This document shows positions 283 through 10,479 of a stretch of 10,791 bases of DNA, one piece after another. The notes under the pieces were generated by a model. It saw only the letters and a program-made list of their open reading frames with translations. It was not told the DNA's origin and did not search any database. How positions within the stretch are numbered: the first letter of the stretch is position 1; each line of letters opens with the position of its first letter. Origin of the DNA: a virus (lineage: Duplodnaviria; Heunggongvirae; Uroviricota; Caudoviricetes); IMG/VR virus record IMGVR_UViG_2802429244_000006, positions 1-10,791 of that record; one strand, given 5' to 3'. The position numbers were made by a program, and so were the translations under genes.

Positions 283-461
283 GCTGTTGTGATGTATTTA
301 ACCGGGCTGCCTTTCATTGCGATGGTTTCACACATCTCCGCGGCTTTACGTTCCGCTGTTTTCCTGGATTTATAGCGGCGGTGCCAGACAGATGTATCCG
401 TGCGAACTGATACATCGTTTCTGTATTCCGTTGTAGAAATAATAATTTCGTAACTAATCAT
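267..461 (-). CDS. Hypothetical phage protein (64 aa from the internal ATG; the ORF track extends to 476)
   Basis: ATG at 461-459 overlaps the TGA of the 493-aa ORF (ATGA) and has GGAGG 8 nt upstream (474-470). The upstream ATG at 476 has no SD. Translation MISYEIIISTTEYRNDV...AEVRP. Confidence 0.45.
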   Translation of the reverse strand: MISYEIIISTTEYRNDVSVRTDTSVWHRRYKSRKTAERKAAEMCETIAMKGSPVKYITTAEVRP

Positions 462-473
462 GGACGCGCCTCC
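456..473. repeat. Copy 2 of the 18-nt gene-junction repeat (aatcatggacgcgcctcc)
   Basis: 17/18 identity with 265..282; same relationship to stop/start codons on the minus strand. Confidence 0.8.
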
Positions 474-1939
474 CATTGATTACGGCGGAAAGCGGTGTGA
501 TTCAGGTGGGTTTCAGCTTCACGGAATGCTTCAATACAGCTCTCGTAGTACCGCATTGTGCGCAGACTTAACCCAAGCTGAAGCATCATCAGGCCATCAA
601 GGGTGATGTAATAACCACGCAGGGAGTCACCATAGATGTGATAAGTGCCCGGTATGAAATTGCGGGTAAAAAAATCGCGCGAGCAGTTCAGATACTCGAT
701 TTTGTCGACGATGTTCTGGTGCATGCGCTTGAAGTGGCAGGCAACATGCAGGGAGAAAATAACGGCCTTGCCGTTGACAACTTCAATTTTCAGGTATGGG
801 GAAGTTGGGACTGTAGCCATGATGGCAGCCTCCTTGAGCAGTGAAAAACTTCCACCACCGGAGCTGCGAAACTCATGGGTGGTGAACTGAACAGGGTTCG
901 CAGTACCGGCGCTCAAGGAAACCGGCGAGCCTTTCGGCTCCCCTGCCCAGCCCACCATAATTCTGGCATGCGCGAGCATGGACGATAAAAAAGACGCTGG
1001 CGCGTCGTATATCGCCTCGAGCAATTCCGGGCTGCGACCCCCGGCACCCGCTTTATAAGGTGCGGAGACAGTGTAACGTCCCGAAATTGCAGAATCAATA
1101 TTTAGGCTTGAAACATTCATATGCTTACTGGTATTTTTACTAACGCAAATGTTCTTGGATGTTACTGGCTTACTTCTCTGTGAAGTTGCCTTTACCAACG
1201 TTGAGCGAGCCGGGTCACTACCCGGCTTTTTTTCACCGCTGCCAACCAATAACCTGAAATAACCCCATTTTCGGGTGATACCAGCGAGTCCCTCGCGGTT
1301 CTGCTTCCTCCATAACCCGATAAAAGCAGCCATAAACGGTTCCACAGCAACAATTGCGCGACGTGACAACAATCCGTCCGGCGTCATGAACTCATGGGTG
1401 TCTGTAGGAATTTGATAGGCGTTCACCAGATTGCGGCATTTATCATCTGACAAACCGGTTTTTGCTTTCAGTTGGCGATATCCGGCATAGCCCTCACGAA
1501 TGGTACCCCTTTTGATTTGCTCAACTGTTTCGGCAACATGGCTGACTTTTTCTTCCACCTGAGTGATCCGTTTCTGCTGACGAACGGCTTCAAGAGCCAT
1601 CGCAGCAACCATTTCGATTTCGCTCATTGGCTTACGGATCTGTTCTTCCAGTTCGCGCCAGCGATCTACCAGGCGAGCAGTGAATTCAGGACAGAGCTGT
1701 GCGACGACAATGATGCTGTCGCGCTTACCTTGTTCTCCTTCAAACAGGTAATGCTCATATTGAACTTTAAAACCTAAGTTATTGATTTTCTCGGAAACAG
1801 CCATTGGCGGTTTCCGGATGATGTTTTTAGCAACCAGGCGTTCGATACTACGTTTAACATCTGAGTGCTGACTACCCACCAGCTCTGCGATCTCAACGCT
1901 GGTCATGGATGCTTTATCGTTAAAAATTGCGGTGTTCAC
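458..1939 (-). CDS. Rha-family phage regulatory protein (antirepressor-like), 493-aa composite ORF; possibly a fusion or read-through of two ancestral genes
   Basis: GTG start at 1939-1937 with AAGGAGG 5 nt upstream. N-terminus (MTSVEIAELVGSQHSDVKRSIERLV...) fits the Phage_pRha pattern. Residues about 230-370 are low-complexity (S/K/G/P-rich) and overlap an AT-rich stretch and a plus-strand terminator. A distinct C-terminal region starts near MATVPTSPYLKIEVVNGK. Confidence 0.65.
   Translation of the reverse strand: MNTAIFNDKASMTSVEIAELVGSQHSDVKRSIERLVAKNIIRKPPMAVSEKINNLGFKVQYEHYLFEGEQGKRDSIIVVAQLCPEFTARLVDRWRELEEQIRKPMSEIEMVAAMALEAVRQQKRITQVEEKVSHVAETVEQIKRGTIREGYAGYRQLKAKTGLSDDKCRNLVNAYQIPTDTHEFMTPDGLLSRRAIVAVEPFMAAFIGLWRKQNREGLAGITRKWGYFRLLVGSGEKKPGSDPARSTLVKATSQRSKPVTSKNICVSKNTSKHMNVSSLNIDSAISGRYTVSAPYKAGAGGRSPELLEAIYDAPASFLSSMLAHARIMVGWAGEPKGSPVSLSAGTANPVQFTTHEFRSSGGGSFSLLKEAAIMATVPTSPYLKIEVVNGKAVIFSLHVACHFKRMHQNIVDKIEYLNCSRDFFTRNFIPGTYHIYGDSLRGYYITLDGLMMLQLGLSLRTMRYYESCIEAFREAETHLNHTAFRRNQWEARP
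1208..1233 (+). terminator. Rho-independent terminator-like hairpin on the plus strand, inside the minus-strand Rha ORF
   Basis: Stem GCCGGGT (1209-1215), loop CACT, stem ACCCGGC (1220-1226), then TTTTTTT (1227-1233). Upstream flank is not A-rich, so it is directional for the plus strand. Confidence 0.5.
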
Positions 1940-2952: not shown

Positions 2953-3063
2953 TCTTTAGTCTCACACCGGATACTCTGTTATCCAAGAATGTTAAACGCG
3001 AGAATCCAAAGTATCAAGAGATTCTGTTACTTTAGTATCAGCAGCCATGAAAGGAGAAGAAAA
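2953..3063. promoter_or_regulatory. Divergent operator/promoter region (OR-like) between the cro-position gene and the CI-like repressor
   Basis: 111-bp gap between divergent genes. Candidate leftward sigma-70 promoter on the minus strand: TTGATA (3017-3012), 17-nt spacer, TAACAT (2994-2989). GTATCA motifs at 3011-3016 and 3035-3040; the 10-mer aaagtatcaa (3008-3017) recurs at 3747-3756. Confidence 0.4.
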
Positions 3064-3720: not shown

Positions 3721-3823
3721 CCAGACTCAAAACACAAAAAGAAACAAAAGTATCAAAAATCACTTGCCACACCTTGATACCTTAGTTACCATAAAACAAA
3801 GTTCGTAACTGAGGTATCATCTC
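3721..3823 (+). promoter_or_regulatory. OL/pL-like operator-promoter region with an inverted repeat GTATCAA-N17-TTGATAC (3750..3780)
   Basis: Inverted repeat arms at 3750-3756 and 3774-3780. Candidate promoter TTGCCA (3764-3769), 17-nt spacer, TACCAT (3787-3792). Shares the aaagtatcaa 10-mer with the OR-like region. Confidence 0.4.
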
Positions 3824-4602: not shown

Positions 4603-4800
4603 CAACAAATATGCTCTGAACGTTTATTACGGTTTTATCGCCGGGGATTGTTACAACCTTTATTCACAGATGGAACTCAGTTATGACTTTCCTGAAAAAT
4701 AAGGCATCGTATAAAACTGCCTGCCTCATTGCACAACATGGAGATTCTTATCTTCATATAGCCAACCTGTATTTGCGCAAAGCATATGGGAGATAAATAA

Positions 4801-4989
4801 ATGAAAGAAAAACAACAGAACATAACACATAAAAAAGTAAGAGTGTTGCTAACCATTGAAAATGGTGAAGTAATTTACTCAAAACATCTGTTGGATAATG
4901 AATTCGTTGGCTGCATGGATACATTTCTGTGGATGGCAAAAAGAGCTGGCTACACGATTATTCCACCAGCAAAGGAGCAAACATTATGA
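4801..4989 (+). CDS. Hypothetical small protein (62 aa)
   Basis: ATG 4801 with GGGAG 8 nt upstream; follows a 198-bp AT-rich intergenic region; stop overlaps the next start (ATGA). Confidence 0.5.
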   Translation: MKEKQQNITHKKVRVLLTIENGEVIYSKHLLDNEFVGCMDTFLWMAKRAGYTIIPPAKEQTL

Positions 4990-5567
4990 ATAATTCAGAG
5001 TTCCGACCAGAAGTTACGCCACATGGCATAAAAATTGGCAATACAACCATTGATTATGTTGAGGCCGTACAGCGACTTAATAATGGTGAATACGATTATC
5101 CAAATTCACACGGTTTAAGAATCCTTCAGTGTCTTGCAGAAGCCGATGATGCCAGATTACTGGGAAGATTTTCAGTCGATATGAAAGTTACTCAATGGCG
5201 CTGGCTGTATGTGACAACGTTTATAAATGAAGAAGAAGGCAAGAACGGCACCATTGATATCCCTAACGATAACGGAACTACAGATCGCGCAGTTATTTAT
5301 AAGGGGAAGCATGGTTGCATGAGTATATACCCAGGACCACTTCGCATTGCCCTGCAGAACCATGTCGAATGGGGATTTATTGAAAAATATGGCGAAGCTG
5401 AAGGCATGGGGCGAGTTCTGTTTCTCTATCAAAAAATGCTCATCGCAGATCCTGATAATGGTTTCATTGTCTCTGCTATGGGGCGCGAAGGGCTTGAACT
5501 CCTTCTGGATGAAATGATTCATGATCTGAATACTCATGGTATGCCAGAAGCACCAGTGACACATTAA
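4986..5567 (+). CDS. Hypothetical protein (193 aa)
   Basis: ATG 4986 with AGGAG (4973-4977) 8 nt upstream; ATGA overlap with the preceding ORF. The ORF-track start at 4929 is an upstream extension without an RBS. No recognisable domain. Confidence 0.6.
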   Translation: MNNSEFRPEVTPHGIKIGNTTIDYVEAVQRLNNGEYDYPNSHGLRILQCLAEADDARLLGRFSVDMKVTQWRWLYVTTFINEEEGKNGTIDIPNDNGTTDRAVIYKGKHGCMSIYPGPLRIALQNHVEWGFIEKYGEAEGMGRVLFLYQKMLIADPDNGFIVSAMGREGLELLLDEMIHDLNTHGMPEAPVTH

Positions 5568-5612
5568 ATATTAAGAAGAATATAATTCTTTCGTTTTTTA
5601 CTAACCGTTTAT

Positions 5613-5720
5613 ATGAAAAGCAACCGTGAATTAAACAGAGTAAAACTAATTTTAATCCTTGCCACAGTGCTGATACTAACTGAAATCATTATTCTCTTTA
5701 TTGCGCTGTCAGTCGGTTAA
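5613..5720 (+). CDS. Putative small hydrophobic peptide (35 aa, one predicted transmembrane helix)
   Basis: Not in the ORF track (under 60 aa). ATG 5613 to TAA 5718-5720: MKSNRELNRVKLILILATVLILTEIIILFIALSVG. No SD, so low confidence. Confidence 0.25.
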   Translation: MKSNRELNRVKLILILATVLILTEIIILFIALSVG

Positions 5721-5743
5721 AAATATCGGGATACCACAGACCA

Positions 5744-5932
5744 ATGAGACTGTATTTCACAATAGTAATTTTACTGGCAATTATCGCATGTATTTACGGA
5801 TTACTTGTTCCGTTCCTTATATCCATGAAGGATACGATAGCAGTTATTTCTGGCTTTGCACTGGCGTTTCTGACCCCGCCCTGCATTTATGCCATTTACA
5901 AGGGGCTTTCTTTCACTAAGGATAAAAGATGA
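5744..5932 (+). CDS. Small membrane protein (62 aa, two predicted transmembrane helices)
   Basis: ORF-track ORF; hydrophobic stretches IVILLAIIACIYGLLVPFLI and AVISGFALAFLTPPCIYAIY; stop overlaps the ATG of the SPFH gene (ATGA). Weak or absent SD; alternative in-frame ATG at 5825. Confidence 0.45.
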   Translation: MRLYFTIVILLAIIACIYGLLVPFLISMKDTIAVISGFALAFLTPPCIYAIYKGLSFTKDKR

Positions 5933-6756
5933 AAAAAATTATTTTTGCTTTAGCCATTGTTCTGCCGACTATTGGCCTTGTCGGTTGCGATCGCGTTGAA
6001 CCAGGTAATGTTGGCATCAAGGTAAATAAACTGGGCGACGACAAAGGCGTCGGTGAGGTGGTCGGTGTTGGTCGCTACTGGACTGGCTGGAATACTGAAG
6101 TTTATATCTTCCCCACCTTCAAGCAAATGAAGACCTACGATGAACCGTTCAGTTTCCAGATGAGTGACGGTACAACCATCGGCTATCACATTGGCGTGGC
6201 CTACAAAGTTGATCCATCCAAAGTTACCACGGTGTTTCAGACCTACCGCAAAGGCGTGGATGACATTACAGACACCGACCTGCGCCAGAAGATCGCCGAC
6301 GCACTCAACCGACTGGCCAGCAAAATGACCACTGACAAATTTATCGACGGCGGCAAGTCTGAGCTGCTGGATGAAGCTCTTAAAGACATTCAGGCAGAGA
6401 TGACACCTATCGGTATTCAGGTAATGAGCCTCTCATATGTGGGTAAGCCGGAGTACCCGCCAACCGTTATCGACAGCATTAATGCCAAAGTCACGGCGAA
6501 CCAGAAAACCCTACAACGCGAGCAGGAAGTTAAACAGCGCGAAGCGGAAGCCAACATGTTGCGCGCGGAAGCTGCCGGACAGGCTGATGCGATTCGCACA
6601 AAAGCCCAGGCTGAAGCCGATGCTATTCGTTTACGCGGTGAAGCTCTGCGCCAGAACCCCGGTGTTATGGAGCTGGAAGCCATCAATAAATGGAACGGCA
6701 CACTGCCGCAATACATGACCAGCGGTGCCAATACACCATTTATCCAGGTTAAATAA
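5929..6756 (+). CDS. SPFH/band-7 (prohibitin/HflK/C-like) domain lipoprotein, 275 aa
   Basis: ATG 5929 with AAGGA 6 nt upstream. Signal peptide with lipobox LVGC (Cys20). Central SPFH-like region and C-terminal Ala/Glu-rich coiled coil (QREAEANMLRAEAAGQADAIRTKAQAEADAIRLRGEA) typical of the family. Confidence 0.8.
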   Translation: MKKIIFALAIVLPTIGLVGCDRVEPGNVGIKVNKLGDDKGVGEVVGVGRYWTGWNTEVYIFPTFKQMKTYDEPFSFQMSDGTTIGYHIGVAYKVDPSKVTTVFQTYRKGVDDITDTDLRQKIADALNRLASKMTTDKFIDGGKSELLDEALKDIQAEMTPIGIQVMSLSYVGKPEYPPTVIDSINAKVTANQKTLQREQEVKQREAEANMLRAEAAGQADAIRTKAQAEADAIRLRGEALRQNPGVMELEAINKWNGTLPQYMTSGANTPFIQVK

Positions 6757-7588: not shown

Positions 7589-7798
7589 GTGGGGCTGGAT
7601 TGCGTACCTATATCAACCTACTGCCGCAACGCAGGAGAAACGGTTGATGCCGTTAACAAACGGATACAAAGAGGAATATGGAAAGAAGGGGTACATGTAT
7701 TAAAAGTCGACGGAGTTAAAGAACGTTGGGTCGACTTAATGGAGATTACAAAATGGGCAAGAAAGAACAAGGATCACTATCTCTCCCTAGAGGAGTAA
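7589..7798 (+). CDS. xis: Excisionase-like DNA-binding protein (69 aa)
   Basis: GTG start 7589 with GAGGTG just upstream; sits immediately 5' of the integrase and overlaps it by 46 nt, as xis does in lambdoid phages. Motif KEGVHVLKVDGVKERWVDL is consistent with small winged-helix excisionase-like proteins. Confidence 0.55.
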   Translation: MGLDCVPISTYCRNAGETVDAVNKRIQRGIWKEGVHVLKVDGVKERWVDLMEITKWARKNKDHYLSLEE

Positions 7799-8925
7799 CT
7801 ATTCGCCAGCATAAAACTGGTAGCACTCTGGTTATCACTTTTACATATAAAGGGGTTCTGTGTCGGGAGCCCCTCTCCAGAATGGAAGTAAACGCGCGCG
7901 GTGTGAAGTACGCTGAGCGTCTGCTGGGAGAAATAAAAAATCAGATTATCGATGGTACCTTCGAATATGCAAAATACTTCCCCAACTCCCAAAAGCTGGA
8001 GTTGTTCGGGGGAGTGAAAAAAAACAAAAATATAAAATCTTACCTGGATGAATACCTGATTATCTGCCAGAACCGTAACCTGTCACCATCGACAATTAGA
8101 GGTTATGAAAAATGCCTGTCGGCGCTGTCAGCATTGCATAAATTTCATGTATCAGAACTGACACCTGCAGTACTAAAAAACTGGATCGCCAACAGAAAAA
8201 CAAAACTGAAAACTATCCGCAATAATCTTTCATTCCTGCGCAGCGCCATAGATGAAGCGGTGACCGATGGTTTGTTAACAATAAATCCTGTCACGCTAGT
8301 CAGCGCCAGCCGGTATCACGTATTGGACAACACACCAGGCAGTGATGATTACGAGGTCGATCCTTTTACACCAGCGGAGACGGCAGCAATCTATGACGCC
8401 TGTCATTACCCGGAATGGCGAAATCTGTTTCGCTTTGCCTTTAATACAGGACTGCGCAGCTCAGAATTGTGCGCGTTGCGCTGGACGGATATAGACTTTA
8501 TCGGCAACACCGCGCATGTTCAGACTGCAAGCGTAGTCGGGGTAATCAAAAGCACCAAAACAAAAGCCGGCACCCGCAAAGTGCAACTGAACAGCGAAGC
8601 GCTGGCGGCTCTTCAGGCACAAAAGCCCTACACGGCGCTAAAGAGCGACTTCATATTCAGCGATCCGAAAACTCGCGCTCCTTGGGCAAACGCAGATGCG
8701 ATCCGAAAAAAAGCCTGGGTACCAACCCTTAAAAAAGCTGGTGTACGCTATCGCAATCCGTACCAGACACGCCACACGTTCGCCACTCGGCACATTAGCC
8801 AGGGCGTTAACCTGTTCTGGCTTGCTGGTCAGATGGGGCATAAAGGACCGGAAATGCTGTTCAGACATTACGGCTCTTACCTTGCAGAATACGATGGAAA
8901 AACGGCGATTTCTGCAACCCCGTAA
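7753..8925 (+). CDS. int: Lambda-type tyrosine integrase (site-specific recombinase), 390 aa from ATG 7753
   Basis: ATG 7753 with GGAG 8 nt upstream (ORF track begins at TTG 7726). N-terminal arm-binding-like region resembling lambda Int; C-terminal catalytic motifs (LRSSELCALRW..., RHTFATRHISQG..., GHKGPEMLFRHYGSY) with the conserved Arg/His/Arg/Tyr pattern. Confidence 0.9.
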   Translation: MGKKEQGSLSLPRGVTIRQHKTGSTLVITFTYKGVLCREPLSRMEVNARGVKYAERLLGEIKNQIIDGTFEYAKYFPNSQKLELFGGVKKNKNIKSYLDEYLIICQNRNLSPSTIRGYEKCLSALSALHKFHVSELTPAVLKNWIANRKTKLKTIRNNLSFLRSAIDEAVTDGLLTINPVTLVSASRYHVLDNTPGSDDYEVDPFTPAETAAIYDACHYPEWRNLFRFAFNTGLRSSELCALRWTDIDFIGNTAHVQTASVVGVIKSTKTKAGTRKVQLNSEALAALQAQKPYTALKSDFIFSDPKTRAPWANADAIRKKAWVPTLKKAGVRYRNPYQTRHTFATRHISQGVNLFWLAGQMGHKGPEMLFRHYGSYLAEYDGKTAISATP

Positions 8926-9057
8926 CGGCAAAATATTTCAAAATGTTGTACAGAATCAGGACGTTATCGGGACAACAATATGTACGTAAAATGCACATAA
9001 TTCATTGTTTGAAAAAATAAATCGTTCATATTCAATAAATTGGATTAATCACGATCA

Positions 9058-9084
9058 CGGGTTCAACTCCCGCCAGCTCCACCA
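9058..9084 (+). other. ssrA: 27-nt copy of the 3' end of tmRNA (ssrA): T-arm 3' side plus acceptor 3' strand ending CCA; interpreted as the att core at a prophage/island junction
   Basis: CGGGTTCAACTCCCGCCAGCTCCACCA matches the E. coli tmRNA 3' terminus as I recall it (...GCGGGTTCAACTCCCGCCAGCTCCACCA). Sequence immediately 5' (cacgatca) does not match ssrA, so this is a fragment, not a complete gene. Confidence 0.75.
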
Positions 9085-9118
9085 CTTTTTAGTTGTTTGA
9101 AGTACAATGAAGTCTACT

Positions 9119-9152
9119 AAGCCCGCACAGCACAAGCTCTGCGGGCTTTTTT
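9119..9152 (+). terminator. Rho-independent terminator
   Basis: GC-rich stem AAGCCCGCA / TGCGGGCTT followed by a run of six T (9147-9152); 35 nt downstream of the ssrA-like CCA end. Confidence 0.7.
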
Positions 9153-9249
9153 ACGTCTATTGTCGTCCAGTGAGAATTGCTGAGAACTATCACTTATGGC
9201 ACCCTGAATGGGACCCACTAAGAAGGGTCCAAAAACCGAGGGTCCCAAA

Positions 9250-10479
9250 ATGGCAAAAATCGCTAAGAAGCTCACTGACACTGAAATCAAAAGCACCAAG
9301 CCAGCCGACAAAGAAATCAACTTGTTTGACGGAGATGGTTTGATACTACGAATCGCTCCCCTCTCGAAAGGAGGAAAGAAGAATTGGTATTTCAGGTATG
9401 CAGTGCCAGTCAGTAAAAAAAGAACCAAAATGAGCCTTGGGACATATCCTCACCTTACACTGGCAAGAGCCAGAGCCTTACGAGATGAATACCTTTCCTT
9501 GCTTGCTAATGGCATTGATCCCCAAGTTCATAACAACGATAAAGCTAATGCCTTAAAGAATGCTACTGAACACACTCTCCAAGCCGTGGCAAGGAAATGG
9601 TTGGATGAGAAGGTAAAGACCTCAGGTATCTCACAAGACCATGCAGCAGACATCTGGCGCAGCTTAGAGAGAAATGTCTTTCCTGGCCTGGGTAATGTCC
9701 CTATCAATGAGATCCGACCTAAGCTCTTAAAACAACACCTTGATCCTATTGAGCAACGAGGCGTATTGGAAACTCTACGCCGCATCATTTCACGTCTGAA
9801 TGAAATCTTCCGGTGGGCAGCCACTGAAGAACTTATTGAGTTCAATCCGGCTGACAACCTTGGTCAAAGATTCAGTAAACCAAAAAAGCAAAATATGCCT
9901 GCCCTTCCCCCAAGCGAATTGCCAAGGTTTATGGAATCTTTGACGAATGCGTCAATCCGGCTGGAAACACGTATGCTAATTGAATGGCAATTGTTGACAT
10001 GGGTTCGTCCGGGTGAAGCCGTTCGCGCAAGGTGGTCTGATATTGATACAACCAACAACATTTGGAACATTCCTGCTGATTTTATGAAAATGAAAAAGCC
10101 TCACAAAGTTCCTTTGAGTAAAGAAGCTTTGCACATCCTTGAATTAATGAAATCAATAAGTGGGCATAGAGAATGGGTTTTCCCCAGCATTAAAGCGCCT
10201 CTTAATCATATGCATGAACAAACAGCCAACGCAGCTATTATCCGAATGGGGTTTGGAGGCGAACTTGTAGCTCACGGTATGCGTTCGATTGCAAGAACAG
10301 CGGCAGAGGCGTCTGGTAAGTTCAGAGCTGAAGTTCTTGAGGCAGCACTCGCCCACTCTAAAAAAGATGAAATTATCGCAGCATACAATCGTGCAGAATA
10401 TCTGATAGAACGACAGAGTTTGATGCAATGGTGGAGTGATTACGTTCAAACTCAAAGAGCTAAAGCTATCGCTGCTTGA
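9250..10479 (+). CDS. int: P4-type (IntA-like) tyrosine integrase, 409 aa from ATG 9250
   Basis: ATG 9250 with GAGGG 7 nt upstream. N-terminus MAKIAKKLTDTEIKSTKPADKEINLFDGDGLILRI fits the P4-integrase arm-binding N-terminal pattern. Conserved blocks DIWRSLER, GVLETLRR, KKQNMP, ARWSDID, HGMRSIART, EAALAH, AYNRAEYL, MQWW. The ORF-track start at 9208 is an upstream extension. Confidence 0.9.
   Translation: MAKIAKKLTDTEIKSTKPADKEINLFDGDGLILRIAPLSKGGKKNWYFRYAVPVSKKRTKMSLGTYPHLTLARARALRDEYLSLLANGIDPQVHNNDKANALKNATEHTLQAVARKWLDEKVKTSGISQDHAADIWRSLERNVFPGLGNVPINEIRPKLLKQHLDPIEQRGVLETLRRIISRLNEIFRWAATEELIEFNPADNLGQRFSKPKKQNMPALPPSELPRFMESLTNASIRLETRMLIEWQLLTWVRPGEAVRARWSDIDTTNNIWNIPADFMKMKKPHKVPLSKEALHILELMKSISGHREWVFPSIKAPLNHMHEQTANAAIIRMGFGGELVAHGMRSIARTAAEASGKFRAEVLEAALAHSKKDEIIAAYNRAEYLIERQSLMQWWSDYVQTQRAKAIAA

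Follow-up and report, generated by a model that had tools for sequence, protein, structure and literature searches.

The locus considered here raises the question of whether a very short hydrophobic reading frame lying in a gap between two phage genes is a functional membrane-protein gene, a toxin, a leader of the genes that follow it, or a stretch of non-coding DNA. The gap (5568..5743, 176 nt) is situated between the stop codon of a 193-aa gene (5567) and the ATG of a 62-aa gene (5744), in the 10,791-nucleotide stretch of DNA from a virus that was analysed as a whole and is referred to as the window. The frame, referred to as ORF35, is encoded on the + strand (5613..5720 in the ORF listing of the window), starts with ATG and has 35 codons followed by a TAA stop. 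Its translation, MKSNRELNRVKLILILATVLILTEIIILFIALSVG (35 aa), and the gap match exactly, in that listing, the 35-aa hydrophobic single-helix ORF in a 176-bp gap that had been pointed out in an earlier, sequence-only reading of this DNA. Its product is predicted to begin with a basic stretch (residues 1-11, net charge +3) and to continue as a hydrophobic helix of 23 residues, with an invariant T23-E24 pair and a maximum 19-residue Kyte-Doolittle mean of 3.06. The frame stops exactly after the helix, which is usual for small membrane proteins.

ORF35 is preceded by a 5' spacer (5568..5612, + strand), an AU-rich leader devoid of a Shine-Dalgarno (SD) sequence, and is separated from the start of the 62-aa gene by 23 nt (5721..5743, + strand), in which 5 changes are seen across the copies compared. 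A weak hairpin, GAAGAAT-ATA-ATTCTTT (5575-5591), is predicted in the 5' spacer, with CG and a run of six T residues (5592-5599) after it, an arrangement that is terminator-like with an AT-rich stem. This element has been rejected as a terminator: it has two G-C pairs only, is not called in the scan, and its T-run is interrupted in several haplotypes. A TATAAT hexamer (5581-5586) has likewise been rejected as a promoter, having no usable -35 element (19-nt spacing) and being mutated to AATAAT or TATAAC in 15 haplotypes.

The gene upstream of the gap (4986..5567, + strand, 193 aa) has a PHROG match to phrog_1515, a family of unknown function, and is annotated by PGAP in relatives. A 1-nt deletion near its 3' end (window position 5551; column 32 of alignment A1) has been observed in 16 of 53 haplotypes, and moves the stop codon 9 nt upstream, resulting in an allele-specific C-terminus. 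Downstream of the gap is a 62-aa two-helix membrane protein of phrog_1130 (5744..5932, + strand; E = 2.5e-23), which is under clear purifying selection. The possibility that ORF35 and the 62-aa gene are the two parts of one split gene was rejected, as their frames differ and the members of phrog_1130 are about 66 aa long, with nothing missing. The 62-aa gene is overlapped by ATGA with the gene of a 275-aa SPFH/Band 7 lipoprotein (5929..6756, + strand; PF01145, 3e-31; phrog_200), which has a signal peptide with an LVGC lipobox.

The order of genes on the + strand is an S24/HTH cI-like repressor, HTH genes, phrog_340, phrog_1515, the gap, phrog_1130 and SPFH, followed on the 3' side by DUF5406, DUF4222, excisionase and integrase. 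This order identifies the window as the early-left arm, from repressor to integrase, of a phiP27/Stx-phage-like, lambdoid-type E. coli prophage. An operator-like motif, TGATAC-N4-GTWAC, occurs at four sites in the window where 0.26 would be expected, on both sides of the cI-like repressor gene. A motif scan places one of these on the OR side of the gene (3026-3040) and three just 3' of it (3741-3755, 3775-3789 and 3805-3819, + strand), and a pL-like promoter, TTGCCA-17-TACCAT (3764-3792, + strand), overlaps one operator-like site. From these sites and this promoter we infer that ORF35 lies in a repressor-controlled operon of the pL type, for which the region 3741..3819 would be the putative control region.

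Other parts of the window have also revealed features that bear on its annotation. Matches to the Rfam families C4 antisense RNA (875-962, - strand, 84 bits) and isrK (987-1063, - strand, 56 bits), both above the gathering scores, lie inside an ORF on the - strand (458..1939) that encodes a 493-aa Rha+Ash protein, and the same DNA gives a Pfam Phage_ASH match at aa 289-381. The annotation as an 'ash family protein' and the C4/isrK RNA genes compete for the same sequence. A sub-threshold fragment resembling the 3' end of tmRNA (9039-9084) and a partial IsrM-like match (9075-9152) are found between two tyrosine-integrase genes (7726-8925 and 9208-10479), and this suggests that the prophage occupies ssrA, with a second island that has its own integrase in tandem to it. 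The related prophage of SE11 and C311 is found at another site, with a different integrase.

The region of the window matches, at 93-98% identity, prophages found in 133-146 of the 5426 complete E. coli genomes, phage phiP27 and a set of Stx2a/Stx2d-converting phages. Within this clade ORF35 behaves as part of a mosaic cassette of 156 nt (5588..5743, + strand), at both ends of which the homology to relatives that lack ORF35 breaks. Homology ends about 20 nt past the upstream stop, the relatives H77-H80 matching 5520-5587 only, and is found again from about 5 nt ahead of the 62-aa start codon, H1 matching from 5739. Comparison of the cassette by blastn-short with the ORF35-less relatives and with the rest of the window gave no significant similarity. 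In the slot 3' of the phrog_1515 gene ORF35 is present in 38 of 54 IMG/VR loci and an unrelated 92-aa gene in the other 16. The joints of the cassette thus fall at gene borders and the cassette is variably present among close relatives, as is characteristic of accessory cassettes; an own promoter and an own terminator, features of classical morons, were not found for it. The orphan gene of 92-93 aa (MSNQNKINVFQVESKHKT...) that fills the slot (L007, 1551-1829; L008, 1551-1832) is without a PHROG match; it begins 3 nt past the upstream stop, and its copy in L007 overlaps the start of the 62-aa gene.

The 62-aa gene and the SPFH gene have been found as a module without ORF35 in three loci (L007, L011 and L012), 13 metagenome contigs and two representative genomes, so that ORF35 is an optional companion of the SPFH module. 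Loci with neither ORF35 nor the 92-aa gene have the pair either preceded by other genes (L011) or on P1-like phage-plasmids (L012). In these phage-plasmids (about 90 kb, non-mobilizable; L012, 1731-1967) the same SPFH lipoprotein is encoded with 89% nt identity, and its gene is preceded by an unlisted 78-aa homologue of phrog_1130 that overlaps the SPFH start, indicating a two-gene membrane module common to lambdoid prophages and phage-plasmids.

A profile search of 1.84 billion representative proteins has revealed no homologue of ORF35 outside the clade, returning its own family and one further entry, P0004. The latter was considered as a longer homologue and rejected, being a frameshifted chimeric gene call that runs from the upstream gene into ORF35. 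An exact look-up of six ORF35 peptide variants in a collection of 15 billion proteins found none, and the family has no match in Pfam, NCBIfam, PHROGs or PADLOC at permissive E-values. A tblastn search of phages and plasmids with the peptide returned no match, phiP27 included, an outcome that is due to the low-complexity filter. A scan of genome contigs with the upstream protein gave no match, and a flank-pattern scan of representative genomes identified ORF35-less alleles only, in Shigella and E. coli. ORF35 is annotated in none of the records inspected, which include six genomes annotated by PGAP, the GenBank and RefSeq entries of phiP27 and DFAST annotations of Stx2 phages. Three metagenome gene calls of 35 aa do correspond to ORF35 (89-91% identity to a padded 44-aa query).

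The 20 nt upstream of the ORF35 ATG are gttttttactaaccgtttat, and over this stretch the best anti-SD duplex has a free energy of +1.2 kcal/mol, in contrast to -5.3 to -7.9 kcal/mol for the neighbouring genes, which confirms the earlier remark that a Shine-Dalgarno sequence is absent. In a predicted fold of the window sequence most of the start region is free of base pairs, and such an unpaired start would be compatible with SD-independent initiation. In the Ribo-seq analysis of EHEC an SD motif was present in just 35-45% of translated novel small genes (PMC5597208), and for this reason the missing SD is not disqualifying for ORF35. A search for the peptide string in the searchable literature and in the Sakai Ribo-seq supplements gave no match, and no experimental evidence of its translation was found there.

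The length of ORF35 by itself is unremarkable, an ATG ORF of at least 35 aa being present on the + strand in 3.9% of dinucleotide-shuffled gaps. When a 19-residue Kyte-Doolittle mean of at least 2.5 is also required, the proportion falls to 5e-5 of shuffled gaps, and on shuffling of the 108 nt of ORF35 itself a frame that is open and equally hydrophobic is obtained in 1e-5. The hydrophobicity is due to a three-base periodicity with T at codon position 2, a position that T takes in 17 of the 23 codons of the helix, compared with a local T content of 39% (P = 8e-4, a post hoc value). An empirical null composed of ATG ORFs of 30-45 aa in the six frames of 1.27 Mb of fetched loci points in the same direction, since the variants of ORF35 occupy the top 16 hydrophobicity ranks among 1170 distinct ORFs. 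Taken together, the shuffles and the empirical null make a pure chance ORF in an AT-rich spacer very unlikely, and the sequence of ORF35 either codes, or recently coded, for a membrane helix.

For the analysis of selection 85 copies of ORF35 were considered, namely those of the window, 8 annotated records, 60 IMG/VR contigs and 16 metagenome contigs. When a pattern anchored only in the downstream gene was used, it recovered the identical set of 60 IMG/VR contigs and 23 ORF sequences, and the retrieval is therefore not biased toward intact frames. The 35-codon frame is free of indels and stop codons in 85/85 copies and starts with ATG in 84/85, the sole exception being an ATG to ATA change in L044 (IMGVR_UViG_2737471857_000010, 2501-2503). 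Conservation of the frame in relatives, a point named in the sequence-only reading, is thus borne out, with low power in a clade of at least 93% nt identity. Over the 27 inferred changes a neutral simulation gives one disrupting change or fewer with a probability of 0.44, and in so shallow a clade the retention of the frame is weak evidence. Indels are distributed unevenly, with none in the 108 nt of ORF35 and three indel columns in the 45-nt 5' spacer; they fall in the T-run of this spacer, which is also substituted, and at the end of the upstream gene. The 5' spacer has accumulated 0.33 changes per site.

Synonymous changes in ORF35 number 9 of 27 against 8.3 expected (P = 0.46), which is neutral-like, and the same test on the adjacent 62-aa gene gives P = 0.0009. 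The replacements that have occurred in ORF35 are conservative, being exchanges within I/L/V/F, A/V/T and N/S/D. Radical replacements in the helix are absent where 2.9 would be expected (P = 0.03), the summed change in hydropathy gives P = 0.026, and a score based on BLOSUM yields P = 0.036 for the frame of ORF35 as against 0.45-0.94 in the other five frames. The same score for the 62-aa gene in its true frame gives P = 0.0007. The ratio of changes at 0-fold and 4-fold sites is 0.43 for ORF35 and 0.31-0.34 for the neighbouring genes. Judged from these sequence comparisons, selection on ORF35 appears to act mainly on hydrophobic character and not on the exact sequence, with a weak and frame-specific signal.

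These results have to be weighed against explanations in which the peptide has no role. The main rival, possible if somewhat doubtful, is that ORF35 is non-functional, either a relic, such as the N-terminal signal-anchor of a gene truncated at the formation of the cassette, or an untranslated spacer that is intact because the clade is young. The non-coding option of the sequence-only reading stands to this extent, that the shallow clade, the neutral-like synonymous ratio and the neutral probability of so few disruptions all fit it, as do the missing SD, the lost ATG in one copy, the absence of annotation in the records inspected, the lack of distant homologues and the confinement to relatives that are at least 93% identical. 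The hydrophobic periodicity would be expected as well of a remnant of a genuine membrane gene. Against a non-functional ORF35 are the shuffles, which exclude pure chance, and the conservative replacements, which are seen in the ORF35 frame only (P ~0.03); the freedom of the 108 nt from indels next to a spacer with three indel columns argues in the same sense. A relic is further opposed by the profile search, in which no longer homologue with a matching N-terminus was found, and by the end of the frame exactly after the helix.

The other two explanations concern the RNA. ORF35 could be an upstream ORF in which translation and not the product matters, the ribosomes re-initiating at the SD-poor start of the 62-aa gene or unmasking it and so setting the expression of the module. 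The arrangement of the starts lends itself to such a role, as the AUG of ORF35 is the first after the stop of the upstream gene and that of the 62-aa gene is likewise the first after the stop of ORF35. The sole SD-like element of the 62-aa gene in ORF35-linked alleles is GGGA (5728-5731, 12 nt before the ATG; -4.1 kcal/mol), in contrast to a strong AGGAGG in ORF35-less alleles; the weak-SD gene (window 5721-5746, compared with 1815-1830 of L007 and 2494-2508 of L011) is still under clear purifying selection in the ORF35-linked allele. Folding of the window sequence predicts base pairs between codons 27-31 of ORF35 and the start of the 62-aa gene. Coupling by unfolding of this hairpin has nevertheless been rejected, for the hairpin is no better than shuffles (z = -0.42), the AUG has a pairing probability of about 0.5 in other haplotypes, and several polymorphisms break the predicted pairs without compensation. 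A gap of 23 nt is long for classical coupling, neither a terminator nor an antiterminator is present in the scan, and a strongly hydrophobic, conservatively evolving peptide would be left unexplained, all of which makes this explanation very unlikely. The leader peptide for the membrane module that had been considered earlier is poorly supported in view of the same observations and of the occurrence of the module without ORF35. Still more improbable, to the point of being nearly negligible, is a type I toxin-antitoxin locus with ORF35 as a membrane-depolarising toxin and an antisense RNA transcribed from the minus strand at about 5570-5680. The size, the single helix and the short basic N-terminus of the peptide fit the general description of such toxins (PMC12648545), the minus strand could adopt the palindromic hairpin (5575-5591) as well, and one promoter-like site, CTGACA-16-AATGAT (5712-5685, 9/12 match), is present on that strand. 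The number of promoter-like sites is at or below chance (2 against 3.7 expected in shuffles), no terminator-like site was found by scan on either strand of 4700-6100, Rfam gave no match in the gap at E-values up to 1, and the RNA structure of the gap is not significant on either strand (z = +0.23 on the + strand and +1.19 on the - strand), so the antisense sRNA signal that was to be looked for on the minus strand did not appear in these consensus scans, which can miss an antitoxin RNA. Neither an own promoter nor a structured, SD-sequestering 5' UTR has been found, the models of the Hok/Ldr/Ibs/ShoB/TisB/Zor/DinQ type in NCBIfam and Pfam give no match, and an antitoxin would be needless for a frame co-oriented in a repressor-controlled operon. 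By the defining features given for the class (PMC12648545), all those tested are missing bar peptide size and hydrophobicity, and the type I label suggested at the outset is not supported.

What survives of the translated, toxin-like peptide proposed in the sequence-only reading is the small membrane peptide, which is best supported by the periodicity, the frame kept in all copies, the conservative replacements and the cassette. ORF35 is probably a genuine gene for a small membrane protein, if a minor one, and not a classical toxin-antitoxin locus. In its fuller form, to which we would give about an even chance, this reading takes ORF35 to be a real, unannotated accessory gene that encodes a single-pass N-in/C-out inner-membrane peptide, produced from the early-left transcript and acting at the host membrane. 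ORF35 would be transcribed within the repressor-controlled early-left (cI-to-int) polycistronic mRNA. Its translation may start without an SD on the unstructured AU-rich leader (AUG AAA ...) or may re-initiate after the upstream gene, the latter being thinkable because no other AUG intervenes after the upstream stop. The product would insert as a single-pass helix with the N-terminus in (K2, R5, R9 and K11), the C-terminus out and a buried Thr-Glu pair. As an accessory membrane factor of the phage, it could then target the host envelope once the prophage is induced or a cell is infected, in the manner of a host-takeover, kil-like or exclusion-type protein, and may act with the adjacent module of the 62-aa protein and the SPFH lipoprotein.

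A more specific proposal, speculative and rather unlikely, is that ORF35 is a young, lineage-restricted gene, possibly of recent birth, since no homologue is found outside the clade of at least 93% identity. It would be either an antitoxin-free kil-type effector that depolarises or otherwise incapacitates the inner membrane of the host on induction, or an allele-specific third subunit tuning the complex of the 2-TM protein and the SPFH lipoprotein. A kil-type ORF35 would need no antitoxin, as the CI-like repressor would silence it.

If translated, ORF35 would be an unannotated membrane peptide in the early region of phiP27-like and Stx2-converting prophages, and a further case of SD-less small membrane genes of phages being missed by annotation pipelines. 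Roughly 2.5% of the complete genomes of E. coli contain these prophages, among them those of O145, O157 and other STEC strains. As it adjoins an SPFH lipoprotein module of phages, it could also be of use in elucidating the role of that module. The ATG to ATA change in L044 provides a natural start mutant or knock-down allele of ORF35 that is experimentally usable.

Comparison with known systems assigns ORF35 to no new category, and its main value is that of a well-defined and cheaply testable small-protein candidate in relatives of Stx phages that are of medical relevance. Type I toxins are described as proteins of less than 60 aa with one transmembrane helix and short terminal extensions, encoded on mobile elements (PMC12648545). 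ORF35 resembles those of Enterobacteria (Hok/Gef, Ldr, Ibs, ShoB, TisB, ZorO and DinQ) in its size, its one predicted helix and its location on a mobile element. Unlike them, it lies within an early operon of a phage, in the orientation of the surrounding genes, and is without a detectable antisense RNA gene, own promoter, structured 5' UTR, SD or family similarity. The arrangement is also reminiscent of uORFs and translational coupling in polycistronic phage mRNAs, ORF35 being directly upstream of an SD-poor gene with a first-AUG arrangement; it departs from coupled uORFs in its stop-to-start distance of 23 nt and in a predicted hairpin that is no better than chance and is not conserved.

AcrZ, MgtS and YohP represent a class of small E. 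coli inner-membrane proteins that were found by Ribo-seq or tagging. Small inner-membrane proteins are 30-50 aa long, single-pass, missed by pipelines and often encoded beside larger membrane partners (see also PMC12648545). ORF35, which is encoded beside a 2-TM protein and an SPFH lipoprotein and has been missed by pipelines, resembles this class, from which it differs in being a candidate only, proposed from its sequence, in being restricted to one shallow prophage clade, and in that the neighbouring module occurs without it. A further likeness is to lambda kil, Qin ydfD and HK97 gp15, small genes for host killing or exclusion found in the early-left or moron regions of lambdoid phages. Such genes are dispensable, vary between related phages and act on the host envelope or division. 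ORF35 differs from them in having no sequence relationship to them in the profile search and a purely inferred function, and from classical morons in having no promoter or terminator of its own. It would resemble them in being a small accessory gene in a repressor-controlled position.
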